DNA of 64,000 nt from an uncultured Gemmatimonadales bacterium. Its GTDB lineage: Bacteria > Gemmatimonadota > Gemmatimonadetes > Gemmatimonadales > GWC2-71-9. Numbering within the stretch: position 1 is the first letter of the stretch; the number at the start of each line of letters is the position of its first letter. Below the pieces are notes generated by a model. The model was not told the DNA's origin. It saw only the letters and a list, made by a program, of their open reading frames with translations, and made no database searches. Location: NCBI GenBank assembly GCA_963844035.1, contig CAWJMT010000004.1, forward strand, positions 96,001 to 160,000, read 5' to 3'. Shown here one piece after another: positions 26,147 through 34,511 of the stretch. The position numbers and the translations under genes were made by a program.

Positions 26147-29100
26147 TTGCGAGATGACCCTTTGGCTGCGCACCTCCTCCTGTCCACGCTCGGCGCGCCG
26201 CTTCTGTTCGCCAGCTCCGGCGAGCCCGTCAGGTTCCGCACCCGGAAGCATTTCGCGCTCTTGATCAGGCTCGGCCTCGAGAGCGGGCGTCGTTTCAGCC
26301 GCGACTACTTGACCGACCTGCTGTGGCCCGACGCGCCGGCCCGGCAGGCTCGCCACTCGCTCGCTCAGGCCCTGTCGGTGGTGAGGGCCAAGGTTGGGGC
26401 GGAGCATCTCCTCGTGCAGAAGGCCACGGTCGCGCTCGTCGCGGGCGCGGTGGACGTAGACGCGTGCCGCCTGGGCGACGGCCCGGCGGAGGTCCGGGGG
26501 CCCTTCCTTGAAGGGTTCGAGATTCCTGGTGCACCCTCGTTCGAGCAATGGAAGGACGAGTGGCGCGCCAAGCTCACGCCGCGGATCCGCGATGCCCTGG
26601 TGAGACAGATGGACGGAGGGCGGCGCATCGGGGATTTCGCAACCGTCGAGCGCTACGCCCAGGTGTTGTACGAGCTCGACCCGCTGTCGGAGGACGCGGT
26701 GCGAGGCCTGATGGAAGCACGCGCCTGGGCGGGAGACCGGCTCAACGCCTTGAAGATCTGCGCACGGTTCGCGGCCCAGCTCGAGGAGGACTTGGGAGCA
26801 AAGCCGAGTGCCGACCTCGCCCGCATGGCCGCGCTGCTGCGCGAGGGCCGCAGCTCGCTGCCGCGGCAGCCTGACGGCAACGGCGTTCAAACTGGGCCGG
26901 CCGGGCCGGCGCGCCACGAGCGGCGCTTCGAAGCAGAGACGCTGATCGGCCGCGAGACGGAGTTCGCGGTCCTGTACGACAATTGGCTCGAAGTGCGACA
27001 GCGCCGGCCGCGCGTGGTCGTCGTGACCGGGGATCCCGGGATCGGCAAGACCACGCTCACCAACGCATTCGTGTCGACCTGTCAGATGGAGGGGGCGGTG
27101 GTCGCGCGCGCTCAGGCGTATGACGCGGAGCGCGAGCTGCCCTTCGCCGTGCTGGCGGAGCTGGTGCGCCAGCTCGCCCTCCAGCGCGCCATCGGCAGCG
27201 CCGATCCGGACGCGTTGAGCGAGCTGGCGCGCATCGCGCCCGCCGTGTTCGACGCGTTCCCTGGCGTTCCCAAGCCGGTTGACTGGGCGGCCGAAGTGAC
27301 TCCCCTGCGCCTGGCCGACGCCTTTCTCCGGACGCTCGCGGCGGCCGGCGACGAAAGTCCCGTCATCCTCGTGGTGGACGACATCCACGCCGCCGACAAC
27401 GCGAGCGCCGCGATCCTGCACCTCGTGGCTCGGAAGCTCGAGGGCACGCGGCTGCTCCTGGTGCTGGCGGGCCGTTCGAGCGAGCTGCGGACCGCCACGG
27501 CACCGGGCGAGCTGGTCTCCGATTCCTCGACGCAAACCATACAGACGCTTGAGCTTGAGCCCTTGGCACCGGACGCGCTGGAGCGTCTCGCGGCCGCGAT
27601 CGCGTCCAAGGCGGGAGGCACCATACAGGATCTCCCCACCCAACGCATCCTCCGGGCGGCGAACGGCAACCCGCTGGCGCTCGAGCTGCTCACGACGGAG
27701 TGGCTCGCGCACGGGTCGACGTCCTTGCTGGCCGATCTTGGAGGCGCTGAACACTCGCCCGGTGGCGAACATCGGAATCCCGCGCGCGATCGGCGCGGTG
27801 TTCGAGCGCCAGATCCGGCGGCTGCACGCGTCTGCGCGGGCGGCGCTCGATCTCGCGGCGGTGTTGGGCCGCCGGCTCGTCGACTTGCCGCTGTACGACA
27901 TCGTGGGCCTGTCGCCCGCGGCCGCGGGGGAGATGCTGTCGCGATTGCGCGAGGAGGGTTTTCTCCGGGAGATCCACGGTGGGCTCGAGTTCCGGAATGA
28001 GCTGATACGGGCGCAGGCGTACTACGCGGTGGCCGGACCGGCGCGGCAACATCTGCACCGGCGCGTTGGCACGCTGTTGGCCGAGCGGCCGCCTGAGGAT
28101 CGGCAGTCGCTCCAGCTGGAGATCGCGTGGCATTTCCTGAGGGGGGGTGATGGAGTCCTTGCGGTCGTCTACGGATTGGTAGCGGCCGAGGAAGCGATGA
28201 GGATTGGCGCTCCCTATGAAGCACAAGAGATTCTCCAGGCACTCATCCACGAGCCGAAAGCCGAGACACACACCCTACGAATTCAATTGTTGGCCGCGCA
28301 GGCCCTATTGGAGCAATCCAAGGCACAAGCAGCGCTCGACGCACTTAGTGGCCTGGAGAATGTGACCGGAATCACGCCGCCCGTATCAGCGGAGGTCGCC
28401 AGGATGCGCGCGACAGCGCGATATCTGATGAACGAAGGTCCCCCACAAGGGTACGTCGAGGCCGCTCAAAGGGCGCTGATCGCCGCAAGGGAGGTCGGCG
28501 ATCCGGAAATACTCTCCCGAGCACTCTTCGAGTGTGCAAGAGCTGGAGCGGAGGCGGGAGACGAAGCTCTAGTCCTTGAGGCCCAAGCAGAGATCGAACA
28601 TCTCCAGAGTCAACCCGAGGCCGCAAAACTGCCAACCCTGCACTATGCCCAAGCGTTTTGCAGTTCCTTCGTCTTTGAACCCGCGCGTGCGGCCGACTCA
28701 ATGGAAGTTGCCCTGAAACTCCTGATTCCTGATGGTAACCCTAGCGAACTGTCATTCGCGTACAACGGATACGCAAACTGCAAGCTGCAACTCTGTGAGT
28801 TTGAATTGGCCCGCGAGGCGTACGGAAGGGGCCTTGAGTTGGCAAGGAAGGTAGGTGACGACTCTCGAGCGTCGGTGGTCGCGGGAAATTTGTGCGGTGT
28901 GCTCTCGATGATGGGGGACTATTCAGCCGCTGTGAGGGTGGGAGAAGATGGCGTTCGATTTGGTGTCCGATGTCCTAGCCAGCCAGTCCTGATAACATGC
29001 TTCACTAGTTTGGCTGAGGCCCACGCCCTCGCCGGTGACAAAATTCGCGCGATTGACAGTCTTAAGGAGGCACAGGAGTGGCTTCAAAGGAGGCAGAGCT

Positions 29101-29507
29101 GGTCAGCTAATGTTGAGTTCCTCTGTCAGAAAGCGCTCATCGCCCTGTTGATGGGTGACCTGGGCTTGGCTCTGGACACTACGGCCCTGGCGGAAAAGGC
29201 TGCGTGGCGCAGAGAACGAACGGTACCAAACCCTGGAATCCTGGCCAAGCTCCGGATCATGCGAGCGGCCCACGTTTCTGGCTTTGAGTCCGCCTTCGCT
29301 ATCGCGCAGGACGCCATGGCGAGGTTCTGTGGTCACCACCCGTTACATTCTCTCGCGGTGTCGACAGCGATAGTGTGGGTGGAGAACAATGCCGGATGCT
29401 CGCATTCGACCGAAACCCAGAAAGCACTGCAACGTCTCGAAATGCCGGAGTTGCGAGGATATAGAGCCATGCTTACAGCCCAAGGGTTCTTGGCGCAGCG
29501 GGCTTGA
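26147..29507 (+). CDS. Large transcriptional regulator: winged helix/BTAD + AAA ATPase + TPR region (frameshift ~27740)
   Basis: SRDYLTDLLWPD...ARHSL.QALS; DPLSE.AVRGLM (BTAD); Walker A GDPGIGKT; Walker B VVDDIH.AD; GNPL; helical TPR-like C-terminus. Confidence 0.85.
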
Positions 29508-29641
29508 TCCCGTTCCAGGCCCCGTCACCCTTTTTGCCCCGCCCAAGGACCCGCCAATCCACACTACGGCCAAAGTCCCTCAAAGATTATGCGCGACGAC
29601 TAGTGTTGGGCTGCTGGCGGGCAGGTCCGTCGCCTCTTCCT

Positions 29642-31015
29642 TTACGGAATAGGAACGCCTTGCTCCACTGTCGCCCGGGGTTGTCTAGAGGCAGTCGCCC
29701 GCTCGAATGCCGCGGGTCCCGATCGGAATGCGGAAGGAGACGCCTTCGCAACCACGCGACGGATTGCAATCGACCTATTCACTATGTCGGCAATTCTGGG
29801 GTCGAATTGCTTACCAGAGTACTTACGAATCTCCTCAAGCGCTCGGTCAAACGGAAGGGCTTTTCTATAAGGGCGGTCCGTTGTCATCGCATCGAGAGTG
29901 TCTGCCACCATTATGATACGTGCGCCCAGAGGAATTCCTTCGCCCGCGAGGCAGTCCGGATAACCCGTACCGTCAAAGTTCTCATGGTGGTGGCGAACCG
30001 CCTTCTCGATCGGGCCCCGCAAACTCGAAATCGTGGTGACGAGCTCAGCGGACCTCACCGGGTGGGTCTGAAGCAGCGCCTTCTCCTCAGGAGTTAGCCT
30101 ACCCTCCTTGTGAAGGAGTGGAGCGTACTCCTCGTATACTTTGCCAACGTCATGTAGCAACGCAGCAGTGGCAATCTGCTCGACCTGTCGGACCCCAGCC
30201 CCAGCTTCCTTTGCGAGAATTCGCGCGTACTGCGACACGCGCTGCGAATGACCCGACGTGTAGGGATCGCGGGCTTCGATTTGCTTGACCATCAACTCAA
30301 GGAGTTCACGACTCGCCTGTTGTAGCCGAAGGTTCTGTACGTAGACATGTCGAACAATGAAGAGAGGAGCGGCGAGAGCAACCACACCACCAAGCTCCCA
30401 CCGTACGTACATGTACGCCAACACGGCTGGCACTGGCGTGACAAAGAGGTCGTAGACCGCAGAACCGCCGAAGAGCCGGGCCCAAGCCCCAGTAAATCCT
30501 ATGCCCTCAGCCAAAGAAACGACAAAGCTCACAGCGGTGGAACTCGCCACGGCGTACGCCAGGGCGCTCAGAAACACCGCGACAGGTACGAACTCGAACT
30601 CGTATAGGGAAGGGGTGCCTCCAAAAAATCGATAGACCGATGCCGCGAAGCCCAGGGACAGGATTTCCTTGGATGAGTTGAAAACAACCTTTATCCAGGG
30701 CTTCTTCCGAATCAACAGGTCTGCGGTGAAGAACGTTGCCCCACCTATCGCCATTGCCCAGAATGGGCCGAAGAGGAATATGGCAGCGAGGAACGGGATG
30801 AATGCGACCGACATGGTGGCAGTGCCAAGTTGAACGCTGACAAAGCTCATCTCAGCAGCCAAGGCAACTGCAACTATTGCAATAAGACCGTTTGAGAACT
30901 TGCTAGACCAATCCCAGACCTCGCCGTTGCCCGCCACAACCATTGCGACAACAGCGCCGCAAGCGATTGCGGACACGCAAAACTTTAGGAGACGTGATCT
31001 AGTAAGGACGTCCAT
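29642..31015 (-). CDS. HD-GYP domain protein with multi-TM N-terminal sensor (putative c-di-GMP phosphodiesterase)
   Basis: DPYTSGHSQRV, LLHDVGK, HHENFDGTGYP, VADTLDAMTTDRPYRK; about 7 hydrophobic segments; GAGGTG RBS. Confidence 0.93.
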   Translation of the reverse strand: MDVLTRSRLLKFCVSAIACGAVVAMVVAGNGEVWDWSSKFSNGLIAIVAVALAAEMSFVSVQLGTATMSVAFIPFLAAIFLFGPFWAMAIGGATFFTADLLIRKKPWIKVVFNSSKEILSLGFAASVYRFFGGTPSLYEFEFVPVAVFLSALAYAVASSTAVSFVVSLAEGIGFTGAWARLFGGSAVYDLFVTPVPAVLAYMYVRWELGGVVALAAPLFIVRHVYVQNLRLQQASRELLELMVKQIEARDPYTSGHSQRVSQYARILAKEAGAGVRQVEQIATAALLHDVGKVYEEYAPLLHKEGRLTPEEKALLQTHPVRSAELVTTISSLRGPIEKAVRHHHENFDGTGYPDCLAGEGIPLGARIIMVADTLDAMTTDRPYRKALPFDRALEEIRKYSGKQFDPRIADIVNRSIAIRRVVAKASPSAFRSGPAAFERATASRQPRATVEQGVPIP

Positions 31016-31061
31016 CTACCAGCACCTCAAGAGTGCGAGAGAGGGTGGCCCCAAGCTGTCG

Positions 31062-31142
31062 TTACCAACCTACCGAGATGTTTGCCATCAGAACGCGGAC
31101 GACCGCGCCCAACAGCAACGCGAGCAGCTTTAGCGCAAACAT
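31062..31142 (-). CDS. Unannotated 26-aa hydrophobic peptide MFALKLLALLLGAVVRVLMANISVGW
   Basis: ATG 31142 to TAA 31062; AGGAGGTGA RBS ends 6 nt before ATG; lies 46 nt upstream of the HD-GYP start on the same strand. Confidence 0.75.
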   Translation of the reverse strand: MFALKLLALLLGAVVRVLMANISVGW

Positions 31143-31365
31143 AGAGCGTCACCTCCTCACGGGGCCTACGAGACTTGCTCGATAGACTTGGAGTGGCACG
31201 CCTCGCTATGGCGTACCCGACGCTCCGCTCCTCAGCTTTTCGCTCGGCTTCGCTCGGGCAACTACAACCCGGGGCCCCTTCCCTCCTTCTCGTTCACAGT
31301 TCGCAACGTGTTTTGCCCAGCGTGCCAGCTTGCGCACGAGGGTGGGAGAAGAATCGTTGCTACGC

Positions 31366-31966
31366 CTACGCCGCCTTCCGCCTCCGCAACGCTTGGCGCA
31401 CCGCGTCAATGACCGCCGAGACGCCGTCCGCCTTGTTGACGATTGTCCTGCACACCGAGTTTGCGCAGCCGCTCTTGATCCTCGACCTCGATGCCGCCGG
31501 TGATGACCAGCAGCTCGGCGGGGAGTTTGCGCCCCGGCTCGAGCAGTCGCTCGATGATCTGCAGGGCGTTCAAGTCCGGCAACCGGTAGTCCAACGCGAT
31601 CAAGGCCGGGCGCACGCGACCGATGGCGATCAACGCGTCCACGCCGTTCGTCACCTTCACGACGTCCAGACCCAGATCCGCCTTCTCGATCAACCGCGAC
31701 AGCGCCTCGAGGTACGTCCGATCGTCGTCCACCAGGACCATCACGTCCCGCGCGACGGCCTCGTGGAGATCCGACGGCACGCCCATGTCGTGCGCTCGGA
31801 GAAAATTCACGAGCTCGCTCACCTCGACCCGCCGCCGACCCGTGGGCGTCTTGTGACCGCTCAAGAGCCCCTGATCGATCCAGTTTGCAACCGTCGCCGG
31901 CGACACCTGACAGGCGCGGGCCACCCGCTGGGTGCCCCAATAGCGCTTCGTACGTGGCGTATTCAC
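31366..31966 (-). CDS. Response regulator with N-terminal excisionase/MerR-like HTH (frameshift ~31445)
   Basis: VARACQVSPATVANWID.G.L...KTPTGRRRV; receiver VLVDDD, ALDYRLP, ITG, VNK. Confidence 0.85.
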
Positions 31967-32082
31967 AGAACAGGAAATACCGCTAAAACAGGAAGTCCGC
32001 TAGTCCCTTCGGTCTAGACCCCCCGATCTGAGGGCGCTGCTGATCGGGAGAGAAACCTACTAACCTATTCTACTACAACGCA

Positions 32083-32814
32083 TTACCTCCGAGCATCAGA
32101 CCAGCGATTGGTGGCATCCAGGACCGCCAGCACGGCACTGCGCTCGGCGCTCTCCCGGATCTCGCAGGTCCCCGTCAACAACTGGGCCTCGCGGCCCCCC
32201 AACCCATGCACCGCCACCAGCACGAACTTCCGATCGAACGCTTCGATCAATTGGGCGCCTTCCAGGGCCACCGAGTTGTCGGGGAGCAGCTCGTCGAGGC
32301 ACAGCGCGGCCGCCCGGGCCGCCGATTCCACCCGATTCCGCATCGTGTCGGTCCCCTGCTCCTCGGCCTCCGCCTCGCGATCCTCGAACCCCAATCGCAC
32401 CCGCACCAACACGCGCTGCGGCCGCTCGGACGGACGCACCTCGAGACCGCGAAACACCACCACCCGCCGCTTGGCGCGCGTGGCGATCGCTTCCTGATGC
32501 AACGCCTCGATCGGACGGACGTCCGACGTTTGCGCCACGCTGATCTTGCGGTGATCGATCTTGAGCCCGAGCTGCGCCATGAGCGCCGACTCGATGTTGC
32601 GCACCACCTGCTTGGGCTGTACATCGCTCAACGTGAGCACGTGGACCTCGGTCACCTCGCCCTGGGGGCTGACGACGACGCGCGCCGACAGGATCCCCGT
32701 CAGGCTGGTGATCAGGTTCTCGGCTCGCTTCGTGCCCCACGGGTCCGTCGGCGCGAGTGGCAGCGGATCGGACTCGGCGTCCCCCGATAGATGCGACGGC
32801 TTGGAAAACGTCAC
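32083..32814 (-). CDS. Conserved hypothetical protein (IDHRKISVAQ motif)
   Basis: GGGGAG RBS; typical coding composition; KQVVRNIESAL..IDHRKISVAQ, AVLDATNR. Confidence 0.75.
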   Translation of the reverse strand: MTFSKPSHLSGDAESDPLPLAPTDPWGTKRAENLITSLTGILSARVVVSPQGEVTEVHVLTLSDVQPKQVVRNIESALMAQLGLKIDHRKISVAQTSDVRPIEALHQEAIATRAKRRVVVFRGLEVRPSERPQRVLVRVRLGFEDREAEAEEQGTDTMRNRVESAARAAALCLDELLPDNSVALEGAQLIEAFDRKFVLVAVHGLGGREAQLLTGTCEIRESAERSAVLAVLDATNRWSDARR

Positions 32815-32815
32815 G

Positions 32816-34511
32816 TCAGGTCTCCCCCGTTGCGACTCGATTCCGACCCAGTTGCTTGGCACGGTACAGTGCGCGGTCGGCTGCTATCAATACGTCCTCG
32901 TGCTCCGGCCCAAGCTGCGCCTCTGCGACTCCTATGCTAACGGTCACCAGCCCCTCCGGATAGCCCATGCGCCGCCCCAGCGCCTCCACCTGCGTCCGCA
33001 CCTTTTGCGCCACGGCGGTAGCGCCGGGAAGGCCGGTGCGGACCAGTACCATGACGAACTCGTCGCCCCCGTAGCGCGCCGCGAGGTCGGTGGTGCGGAT
33101 CAGCGCCTGGCACTCGCGCGCCGTGCCCCGGAGCACCTCGTTCCCAGCCTCATGGCCGAACCGGTCGTTGACCTGCTTGAAGTTGTCCAGATCGACGAAC
33201 AAGACCACGAACGTCTCCCCCGACCGCGAGCTGCGGGCGGTCTCCGTGGCGAGCCGGTCGCGCAGCACGCGGAACGTGGCCAGCCCCGTGAGGGCGTCGA
33301 TCGCGGCCTGCTGGTGCGCTTGGGTCGCCTCCTTGTCGAGATAGGGGGGGCACGCCTTGAGCGTCGTACGCCCCAGCGCCGCCGCTGCGGCGAACGCCCG
33401 ACAGGTTGCGTATCCGCACGCGCCGCAGTCCCACGGCTTGCCGTTGGACGCCATCCCGATCTGCGACAGGATCTGATCGACCGCCTCTGCCGGAGCCCCG
33501 TGTCCGTTTTGATGGAACGGGAAAACGGCACCCACGCGCACGCCATCCGCGACCGACTCCTCGACGACCGGCAAGCGGGCCCGGGCAGGCTCCGTCGCCC
33601 CGACGATCTCGCGCCTCCAAAACAAACCTTCCGGCGGCCCGATCAACGGGTGGTCAAGGCAGCCATCGCATGGCAGGATGTCGACGAACCCCAGGTCGAT
33701 CCGGTCCACCGCGACGGCACGCGCCAGGGCTTCCAGCTGGGTCAGACCACGCATCTTCCGGAACCGCCGGCTCGATTGGCGTTCCGCCATCAGCACCTCG
33801 AGCGGCAGTCCCCCCGCCGTGCTCCAATGGCGCCGCCGCTCTTCCGGCATCCGGCTGAAATGCAGCGGCTGCTCGAGGGGGCGCACCCCGGCCCGCTCGA
33901 GAATCGTCCCCAATTCCCCGAAGGTGATCGCAGCATCCACGTCCCCTCCCCCCTCAGTCACGCAGACGCCCGGCATAGACCACTGATGTGCCGGGGCCGT
34001 ACATCTGCTTGAGGTAGCGCGCCTCAGCGGCGATCGGGGTTGCCACCGGCGCGAGGTACGGGATCAGCTCGGGGTACTTGGTCCGCACCGTCTCCACGAT
34101 CACGGGACAGGTACTGCGGATCATCGTCCCCCAGCCAGTGTCGTTCCATGCCCGCAGGTACTCCCGGGCGACCAACTCGTCACCCAGGACCCCCCGGTGC
34201 ACCGTACGGAAACCCGCCGCGTAACACGCGTTGACGACCTGTTCGGGGGTGGCTGGATAGAAATGGACGGCGGATTCGACACTCAGGATGATTGTGGCAC
34301 GCCCGCCACACGCCAGCTGATACGCGCGCTCGAAGTCGCCCACGGCGATGATCGCCTCGTGGGGACAGGCGGGAAGGCACAGGCCGCACCGGGTGCACGA
34401 CTCGTCGACGATCCGGACCTTCTCGGCCTCGACAGCGACGGCGTCAGCGGGGCAAACCCGCACACAGGCATGGCACGCCACGCAACTGTCGGGCTCGACT
34501 CTAAAATCCAC
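32816..34511 (-). CDS. Diguanylate cyclase with N-terminal 2x[4Fe-4S], [FeFe]-hydrogenase-like and FeS domains (frameshift ~33975)
   Basis: CVACHACVRVCP/CTRCGLCLPACP; RSTCPVIV...YPELIPYLAPVATP; DCGACGYATC...CPPY; DALTGL, DLDNFKQVND.FGH..G, RYGGDEF. Confidence 0.88.

Follow-up and report, generated by a model that had tools for sequence, protein, structure and literature searches.

A conserved small open reading frame within a predicted structured RNA accompanies MASE9-HD-GYP genes in Gemmatimonadota and may encode the ligand of the sensor

What does a gene of 26 codons do directly ahead of a membrane-bound enzyme of cyclic dinucleotide turnover? The question is raised by a 64,000-nucleotide stretch of DNA from an uncultured Gemmatimonadales bacterium (hereafter the window; GenBank assembly GCA_963844035.1, contig CAWJMT010000004.1, positions 96,001 to 160,000), the minus strand of which carries an unannotated small open reading frame (ORF) at 31062-31142. 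Its stop codon ends at 31062, the strong Shine-Dalgarno (SD) sequence AGGAGGTGA precedes it, and a gap of 46 nt leads to the ATG, at 31015, of a gene encoding a MASE9 membrane domain fused to an HD-GYP domain. An earlier sequence-only reading of the window had described this arrangement, which is confirmed here, and had proposed that the peptide or its tail is the ligand or intramembrane partner of the membrane sensor. The answer favoured here is that the last ~6 residues of the peptide probably act as cognate ligand to the neighbouring MASE9 domain and gate the HD-GYP domain, as these last residues change together with the sensor domain across the Gemmatimonadota.

Comparison of sequences indicates that the small ORF is a genuine gene under coding selection and is tied to the MASE9 sensor. 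The string GGAGGTG is followed by an ATG in 90 cases in the window's genome, 29 of which yield ORFs of 12-45 aa, and since it is the only one of these 29 to end in Trp, the small ORF exceeds what is expected by chance; one copy of its leader was detected in that genome. Across 22 disjoint pairs of peptide genes the ratio of nonsynonymous to synonymous substitution (dN/dS) was 0.27 for the leader and 0.23 for the tail, and differences were distributed 49/27/98 over the three codon positions (98 of 174 at third positions). None of the 107 peptides compared with Pfam and NCBIfam matched a family with E <0.01.

The small ORF led by a ribosome-binding site, which the earlier reading expected to recur upstream of homologues of the sensor gene, does so. 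The closest named homologues of the MASE9-HD-GYP protein belong to Gemmatimonadales. A first set comprised 41 Gemmatimonadota loci, four of which start within the MASE9-HD-GYP gene; all 37 that have upstream DNA carried an SD-led small ORF directly upstream. A wider sample was drawn from 301 Gemmatimonadota genomes with 296 matches, 120 loci being taken among the best 150 of the 296, and two of them lay too close to a contig end to be scored. An ORF of 9-45 aa with an SD match of at least 6 nt was found upstream in 115 of the 118 scored loci (no qualifying ORF at L127, L174 and L181), and in 94 of the 118 there was a hydrophobic peptide with Trp among its final three residues; the ORF calls at L120 and L115 are likely to be spurious. 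As a control, the reverse strand of this DNA was scored in the same manner and gave 21 SD-led ORFs, none of them hydrophobic with Trp near the end. Among MASE9 loci of the Chloroflexota type, each of the 17 for which 300 nt or more of upstream DNA are available has a 25-aa peptide, and no peptide was found at L051 (251 nt upstream), L047 (0 upstream) and L075. HD-GYP loci with no match to the MASE9 profile had a small ORF in 0 of 14 cases, 12 of which had ample upstream DNA, and two of the 14 (L078 and L080) may hold a divergent MASE9. Ahead of the MASE9-HD-GYP genes of Nonomuraea gerenzanensis and Natranaerobius thermophilus stand ORFs of 34 aa (with a weak SD) and 28 aa, respectively, both missing from the gene tables of PLSDB, which are incomplete. 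Later analyses of the family used 144 non-redundant loci, selected for having an ORF call.

Co-variation of the peptide with the membrane domain had been put forward as a check on the ligand proposal, and it was found in the tail. From 100 loci having all parts, 254 pairs with an upstream-protein identity of at least 75% were compared; tail similarity followed MASE9 identity with a partial r of 0.67 when both flanking genes were controlled, and likewise 0.67 with the leader controlled, a value reached in 0 of 1000 within-cluster permutations (maximum 0.49). It falls to 0.36 once the HD-GYP domain is also controlled. The leader tracked MASE9 with an r of 0.25, and the partial r between the tail and the tetratricopeptide repeat (TPR) region of the convergent STAND neighbour was 0.02. 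MASE9 is the fast-changing domain, with 62% identity in 35 pairs in which the upstream protein is 93% and the HD-GYP domain 85% identical. One leader is common to nine loci, two of which have D-x-L-x-W-x tails; the MASE9 domains of these two are 79% alike mutually and 26-32% alike to those of other loci with the same leader, and finer tail classes match finer MASE9 classes. L016 and L088 share almost the same DNA over the 30 nt ahead of the ORF and its first 19 codons, after which the tails differ, which points to an exchange breakpoint inside the peptide gene at about codon 19; the MASE9 domains of the two are 26% alike. In the protein tree L013, L016 and L018 are remote from the clade of their hosts and group in a region in which peptides mostly continue beyond Trp. 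Mutual information with the tail columns is richest in the lid loop of MASE9 at residues 57-71 (5 of 14 columns with z>3), and where the peptide continues beyond Trp or ends in WW, the sensor has Gly68 in 72 of 73 cases, versus 4 of 58 others.

The earlier description of the downstream gene as a multi-spanning membrane domain joined to an intact HD-GYP domain also held. The gene (29642-31015) encodes 457 aa, with Pfam matches to MASE9 (PF20972) at aa 46-218 (E 5.5e-6; 26.9 bits versus a cut-off of 24.3) and HD_5 at aa 241-408; the MASE9 profile was matched by 135 of the 144 homologues at E<=0.1, and the window's match is the only one in its genome (G000, 84% complete). Alignment with PmGH (4MCW) shows that the metal and substrate residues are kept (H256, H288-D289, K292, H318, H343-H344-E345), as are G351-Y352-P353, D372 and R381-x-Y-R384, and the signatures HHExxDGxGYP and RxY[K/R] are both present. 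The domain is thus predicted to degrade cyclic di-GMP (c-di-GMP). Tyr252 in place of E185 assigns it to the binuclear class, and the family description links this replacement to a binuclear centre whose hydrolysis, some exceptions aside, generally goes no further than pGpG (10.1101/2021.11.05.467447).

The MASE9 domain was modelled with AlphaFold from a 49-row alignment (pLDDT 89), and the model resembles NikM (4m5b; Z 13.9, root-mean-square deviation 3.5, 191 aligned residues, model 7-213 to chain 6-214), FolT (5d0y; Z 13.2, deviation 2.9, 154 aligned) and, at Z 10-13, many vitamin S-components; with the profile alone, nothing among PDB chain sequences scored below E 0.4. Polar residues are conserved at S69, N113 (invariant), K116 (Q in the family), S158 (N in the family), D189 and R222, and judging from the aligned ranges S69, N113, Q116, N158 and D189 appear to sit at sequence positions like those of the NikM pocket. 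According to the part of the TtNikM2 report consulted, the outward-facing pocket of that S-component is filled by its own 9-residue N-terminal loop, which contacts His67 and Asn109 and lies near Met113, Ala150-151 and His190 (PMC3945884). Basic stretches of MASE9 occur at the N-terminus and at aa 57-68, 103-109, 168-184 and 220-232, acidic ones at aa 31-39 and 132-143, in a positive-inside pattern (3.2 K+R versus 0.2 D+E at aa 103-109). As a result of this charge bias, and because the HD-GYP domain must be inside, the likely MASE9 pocket is predicted to lie on the cytoplasmic face, inverted relative to transporters, and a pheromone would therefore have to be re-imported or act internally. DSSP assigns aa 194-249 of the model to one unbroken helix, and the final MASE9 hairpin is for this reason taken from sequence. 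The description of MASE9, in the text consulted, itself proposes ligand binding within the membrane (10.1101/2021.11.05.467447).

Peptides of the family are 14-35 aa long, mostly 23-27 aa, and 131 of 144 have Trp within the final three residues. One MASE9 clade (L088, L091, L092, L094, L096, L097, L098) has Ile, Leu or Phe in place of the terminal Trp, which is hence not obligatory. The leader can shrink to 8-10 residues in peptides of 14-16 aa; the MASE9 domains of L021 and L022, for example, are 72% identical, yet their peptides have 15 and 24 aa, respectively. The leader had been read as a signal sequence, and this part of the earlier proposal does not survive: in the window's peptide R16 breaks the hydrophobic stretch and Leu stands at -3 relative to A20. 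K or R occurs at residues 2-5 in 18 of 119 peptides and mid-helix in 69, the longest uncharged run is at most 16 residues in 115 of the 119, and Ala/[DEN] junctions have Phe at -3 in 27 of 57. In a rule-based check only 9 of 138 distinct peptides, the window's excluded, passed the n-, h- and c-region rules jointly. As so few pass, and the leader is instead an amphipathic helix (moment 0.28 versus 0.17 shuffled; above the 90th percentile of its own shuffles in 73 of 119 peptides), a signal peptide of the Sec/signal peptidase I type was rejected for the Gemmatimonadota; the Chloroflexota and Natranaerobius peptides resemble signal peptides more than these do. The ligand proposal as first made is thus partly supported, in that the ORF is conserved, coding and tied to the sensor and its tail co-varies with it, and it loses the Sec-type export signal.

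Around the ORF lies a feature that the earlier reading did not mention, a predicted conserved structured RNA that encloses it. A long-range helix, P0, joins bases at about -120 to those after the stop codon, and between its 5' arm and the ORF lie GAGCG repeats followed by helices P1, P2 and P3. At least three copies of AGCG[GA] were found in 131 of 138 leaders and in 0 of 138 control stretches within the MASE9 gene. In a 26-row alignment 97.5% of P1-P3 cells were paired and 6 of 20 pairs showed compensatory changes; cells changed on both sides were as numerous in 0 of 500 shuffles and exceeded slid controls too, these 26 rows being close relatives from which the structure itself was derived. 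The P0 arms are wholly different in sequence between Gemmatimonadota clades yet complementary: over 138 loci the cognate duplex had an energy of -34.4 kcal/mol, versus -26.2 for non-cognate and -23.7 for control arms, and the cognate arm ranked in the top tenth at 92 of them. There is no P0 in 12 Chloroflexota loci, where the cognate duplex equals the non-cognate and terminator-like hairpins were seen by eye after the ORF. The motif is absent from Rfam: two matches, both far below gathering scores, were returned for window positions 29300-32200, and one tRNA and nothing else for 16 loci. No conserved sigma-54 site was seen upstream, nor any sigma-70-like site or terminator on the minus strand, and TRAP (PF02081) was not found in the 84% complete genome G000, the B. 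subtilis control genome being scored.

RNA-library contigs fell on the element in all eight runs examined of the 11 that contain it. These are unstranded contigs picked by search, X1 and X2 are identical and count as one data set, and runs X6, X7, X10 and X12-X15 lay outside the comparison; gaps in contig cover carry no meaning. Near-identical contigs at 31049-31261 (X3), 31058-31248 (X4), 31074-31245 (X8), 31048-31245 (X11) and 31058-31272 (X9) lie inside P0, X5 continues to 31007 and X1/X2 spans 31128-31319, which establishes presence in RNA libraries and only faintly suggests a discrete RNA.

A working scheme can be drawn from these elements. The ~250-nt RNA closed by P0 would be a stable message, from which the strong SD would yield peptide in excess over enzyme (median SD strengths are -14.7 kcal/mol for the small ORF and -5.75 for the MASE9 gene), with pairing in P1/P3 setting the amount; the RNA may also couple translation to the enzyme gene. 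The amphipathic leader would serve as a membrane anchor or export handle, and a disposable one, since its length is free. The free C-terminal tail would then enter the pocket of S69, N113, Q/K116, N/S158 and D189 from the cytoplasmic side, much as the terminal loop of NikM fills the same pocket, and might reach it either directly, from a leader anchored in the membrane, or once the peptide has been exported and re-imported. Finally, the last helix and coiled linker would relay the signal to the HD-GYP domain, likely making pGpG, and tail-sensor pairs would form specificity groups. Whether the peptide passes from cell to cell, by export, trimming and re-import, or acts in the producing cell alone we judge to be about even. 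The most ambitious form of the proposal, namely a multi-phylum peptide quorum sensing that includes diderms, with an RNA-encoded pre-peptide exported, trimmed and re-imported, a Trp tail in an inverted S-component switching a c-di-GMP phosphodiesterase, and pherotypes exchanged through the breakpoint within the gene, is offered tentatively, and we consider it rather doubtful as a whole.

Several observations weigh against the tail being the ligand of MASE9. Before controlling, the tail tracks the HD-GYP domain nearly as well as it does MASE9 (0.65), and as tail and MASE9 are separated by only 26-56 nt, co-transfer adds to their correlation; the pairs are also related by descent, so that p-values are overstated. 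The Gly68 rule proved non-significant on the tree (2 of 5 independent pairs concordant, 0 discordant, p 0.5), and the mutual information of the tail is noisy, also reaching an outer loop and 6 of 169 HD columns. On the structural side, Z values near 13 for helical bundles may reflect a common arrangement, and the equivalence of the MASE9 and NikM pockets is drawn from aligned ranges rather than a residue-level alignment. With the basic N-termini of the Chloroflexota and Bacillota peptides, the tail would end up on the outer side of the membrane, away from the predicted pocket, if it is not cleaved and re-imported, and no dedicated exporter or protease was found among the recurring neighbours checked. 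The window's genome has three PF00496 matches and one OPT-family gene, which would do no more than make peptide import possible.

The coordinates of the locus are given in Table 1. The protein encoded upstream has Atlas matches in Gemmatimonadota clusters only and is a candidate binder of the GAGCG repeats. A low-confidence model built from its sequence alone (pLDDT 49) gives the N-terminal domain a similarity to cation-efflux C-terminal domains (Z ~9), and LeuA was absent from the structural matches listed for this model. The TPR region of the STAND regulator is hypervariable, at 48% where the N-terminal part is 79%, and its variation is independent of tail and MASE9; it may sense a separate, fast-changing input; in the near-identical hosts of L178 and L189 the N-terminal part is 97% and the TPR region 33%. 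GC content drops from ~68-70% to 53-60% over 28200-31200, which covers the TPR region and the MASE9-HD-GYP gene and is consistent with recent exchange of this block. At 31366-31966 (minus strand) lies a protein with a MerR-type helix-turn-helix (HTH) and a receiver domain (apparent frameshift near 31450, a homologous C-terminus being in another frame), and at 32816-34511 (minus strand) a ferredoxin/hydrogenase-like iron-sulfur (FeS) domain is fused to GGDEF, with a frameshift near 33975 in the window; in L003 the latter is one ORF of ~590 aa. As several genes are frameshifted, assembly errors are suggested in the window's genome. The FeS-GGDEF gene is upstream of MASE9-HD-GYP in at least 71 of 144 loci, so that in many loci of the Gemmatimonadales a diguanylate cyclase precedes the phosphodiesterase.

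Table 1. Features of the small ORF locus, in window coordinates
Feature	Position	Strand	Remarks
STAND regulator (BTAD-AAA-TPR)	26147..29507	+	Convergent; frameshift near 27740-27760; downstream in 105/117 loci for which 3.5 kb or more are available
Coiled linker and HD-GYP domain	29642..30319	-	HD-GYP at aa 241-415, catalytic motifs intact
MASE9 membrane domain	30320..31015	-	aa 1-232, eight segments; NikM/ECF S-component-like fold (model)
SD-like GAGGTG of MASE9-HD-GYP gene	31023..31028	-	Small predicted hairpin immediately 3' of P0
P0 3' arm	31041..31059	-	Begins right after the peptide stop codon
Small ORF	31062..31142	-	26 aa, MFALKLLALLLGAVVRVLMANISVGW; amphipathic leader (~aa 1-20), variable tail NISVGW
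Helices P1-P3	31143..31226	-	P1 31226-31219/31150-31143; P2 hairpin 31217-31195; P3 31194-31190 with SD (predicted)
SD of small ORF, AGGAGGTGA	31149..31157	-	6 nt upstream of ATG; partly paired in P1/P3 (predicted)
GAGCG(G/A) repeats	31221..31255	-	Candidate protein-binding sites
P0 5' arm	31264..31285	-	Long-range helix closing the RNA; duplex of -42 kcal/mol with 3' arm
Conserved protein with no Pfam family	32083..32790	-	Precedes the RNA in 133/133 loci that offer 1.5 kb or more on this side

Side observations from the wider family concern its distribution and fusions. The Chloroflexota-type loci L042-L068 encode 25-aa peptides that combine a basic N-terminus with a junction rich in Gly, have a terminator-like hairpin between the peptide ORF and the MASE9 gene and, in most, a sigma-54-type activator downstream; L046, L049 and L050 have a second SD-led hydrophobic ORF, of 10 aa, ~75 nt ahead of MASE9. 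On the N. thermophilus plasmid NZ_CP144220.1 (L202:1334-2756) the MASE9-HD-GYP gene is apparently split into two annotated ORFs, followed by pieces of DUF5317. G004 has two MASE9-HD-GYP matches (G004:C48 and G004:C45), the second at a contig end, and protein P0065 joins a related MASE9 to PAS, histidine kinase and receiver domains.

Could the ORF matter for its translation rather than its product? In such a cis leader-ORF control, a ribosome at the stop codon would melt the 3' arm of P0 and open the start of the MASE9-HD-GYP gene, with the RNA sensing a signal. The conservation of P0 across the Gemmatimonadota in wholly different sequences favours this, as do the position of the 3' arm, whose first predicted pair comes 0-2 nt past the stop codon at 111 of the 132 loci compared, the tight gap to the MASE9 start (median 36 nt), the overlap of the best MASE9 SD with that arm, found at 79 of these loci and at 48 with an SD of -5 kcal/mol or stronger, and the predicted pairing of the small-ORF SD (mean unpaired probability 0.28 over 138 loci). 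It would leave unexplained, however, why the tail alone tracks MASE9, why the leader is amphipathic and why Trp ends so many peptides; the 12 Chloroflexota loci that lack P0 still keep the peptide, and in the window itself the MASE9 SD lies outside P0. We therefore regard such control as an unlikely full account, and a role of the RNA probably coexists with that of the tail as ligand. Somewhat less probable again is an uncleaved small membrane subunit that, like MgrB or SafA, packs on MASE9 by its helix rather than its tail. The peptides are hydrophobic, most of them 23-27 aa long, the within-membrane binding proposed for MASE9 points the same way (10.1101/2021.11.05.467447), and NikM/CbiM, in the text consulted, depend on small extra membrane proteins (PMC3945884); yet the leader tracks MASE9 weakly, shrinks to 8-10 residues as in L021 compared with L022, and seldom has an uncharged run of more than 16 residues.

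Two further accounts would detach the peptide from MASE9 altogether. It might be the ligand of the convergent STAND protein, bound by the TPR region in the manner of RRNPP receptors, with MASE9 a mere neighbour. The STAND gene is a frequent downstream companion (Table 1), and the TPR region, itself hypervariable, lies in the stretch of lowered GC content; but the tail and TPR region do not co-vary, so that the TPR region was rejected as the peptide's receptor, and peptides persist by MASE9 where no match to the window's STAND protein was found, the Chloroflexota loci included, which makes this account the least credible of those weighed. In type I toxin mRNAs, 5'-3' pairing and SD occlusion keep the message silent. 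A membrane-active peptide of the type I toxin or modulin kind, with the enzyme as immunity function or bystander, would fit the small amphipathic product, the predicted SD occlusion and the long-range helix between the 5' and 3' ends. Against it stand the one leader copy in the genome, fixed beside a signalling enzyme, the weak charge and frequent shortness of the leaders and the want of Pfam or NCBIfam matches noted above, and we hold it to be very improbable.

With the tail as probable ligand of MASE9, the system would work like RRNPP or Agr signalling, yet it falls outside both. RRNPP (RRNPPA) systems include Rap-Phr, PlcR-PapR, Rgg-SHP and ComR-ComS. As in these, a tiny pre-peptide gene with a leader and a variable, putatively active C-terminal tail adjoins that of its putative receptor, there would be specificity groups and the receptor site would be cytoplasmic. 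Unlike them, the partner that co-varies with the peptide is a membrane domain resembling an S-component and not a soluble TPR receptor (the adjacent TPR region giving the r of 0.02), signal output would run through a predicted c-di-GMP phosphodiesterase, the phylum of the host is diderm and the ORF lies within a structured RNA. AgrD has an amphipathic leader and ComX has Trp near its C-terminus. Agr and Bacillus ComQXP share with the present locus a membrane receptor and a hypervariable peptide-receptor pair, as well as these two peptide features; here, in contrast, the genes around the locus in the window (HTH-receiver, the protein of no known family, FeS-GGDEF and STAND) include neither a histidine kinase nor a gene of the AgrB or ComQ type, the output is HD-GYP and the pocket is predicted to be cytoplasmic. 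MgrB-PhoQ and SafA-PhoQ likewise place a small hydrophobic protein on a membrane sensor, but here specificity would reside in a short variable C-terminal tail and helix length is free. From NikM/CbiM and the ECF S-components comes the fold of aa 7-213, with its six-helix core and, in NikM, a pocket filled by a terminal peptide loop (PMC3945884); MASE9 differs in its predicted inverted orientation, in an extra C-terminal helix leading to the enzyme and in having neither the metal-binding N-terminus of NikM nor an ECF module nearby; the charge pattern and C-terminal enzyme speak against an outward pocket with a transport module.

The enzyme family itself is already known. T. maritima TM1467 and S. 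venezuelae HdgA are MASE9-HD-GYP phosphodiesterases with the same domain pair and eight membrane segments as the window's protein; HdgA is membrane-bound and poorly expressed, and in the text consulted membrane HD-GYP enzymes of its type had no mutant phenotype, possibly for want of the signal (10.1101/2021.11.05.467447; PMC6205966). In the passages of these two papers that were consulted, no ligand, small ORF or RNA is named, and in the main text of the preprint the word 'peptide' occurs 0 times. The literature searched, which leaves out most subscription journals and all supplements, yielded no description of either the peptide or the RNA ahead of MASE9.

No ligand of MASE9 was found in the literature examined, and the tail offers a gene-encoded candidate of 6-7 residues. 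The natural cognate and non-cognate tail-sensor pairs make the question directly testable with synthetic peptides. The findings suggest that a transporter binding fold has been reused, flipped, as a peptide sensor, and both this receptor fold and its output would be new for peptide quorum sensing as far as the literature searched goes. If the peptide acts between cells, peptide quorum sensing would be extended to a diderm soil phylum; and should the multi-phylum proposal be true, the orphan MASE9 domain would gain a ligand and kin-specific peptides would be linked directly to c-di-GMP.

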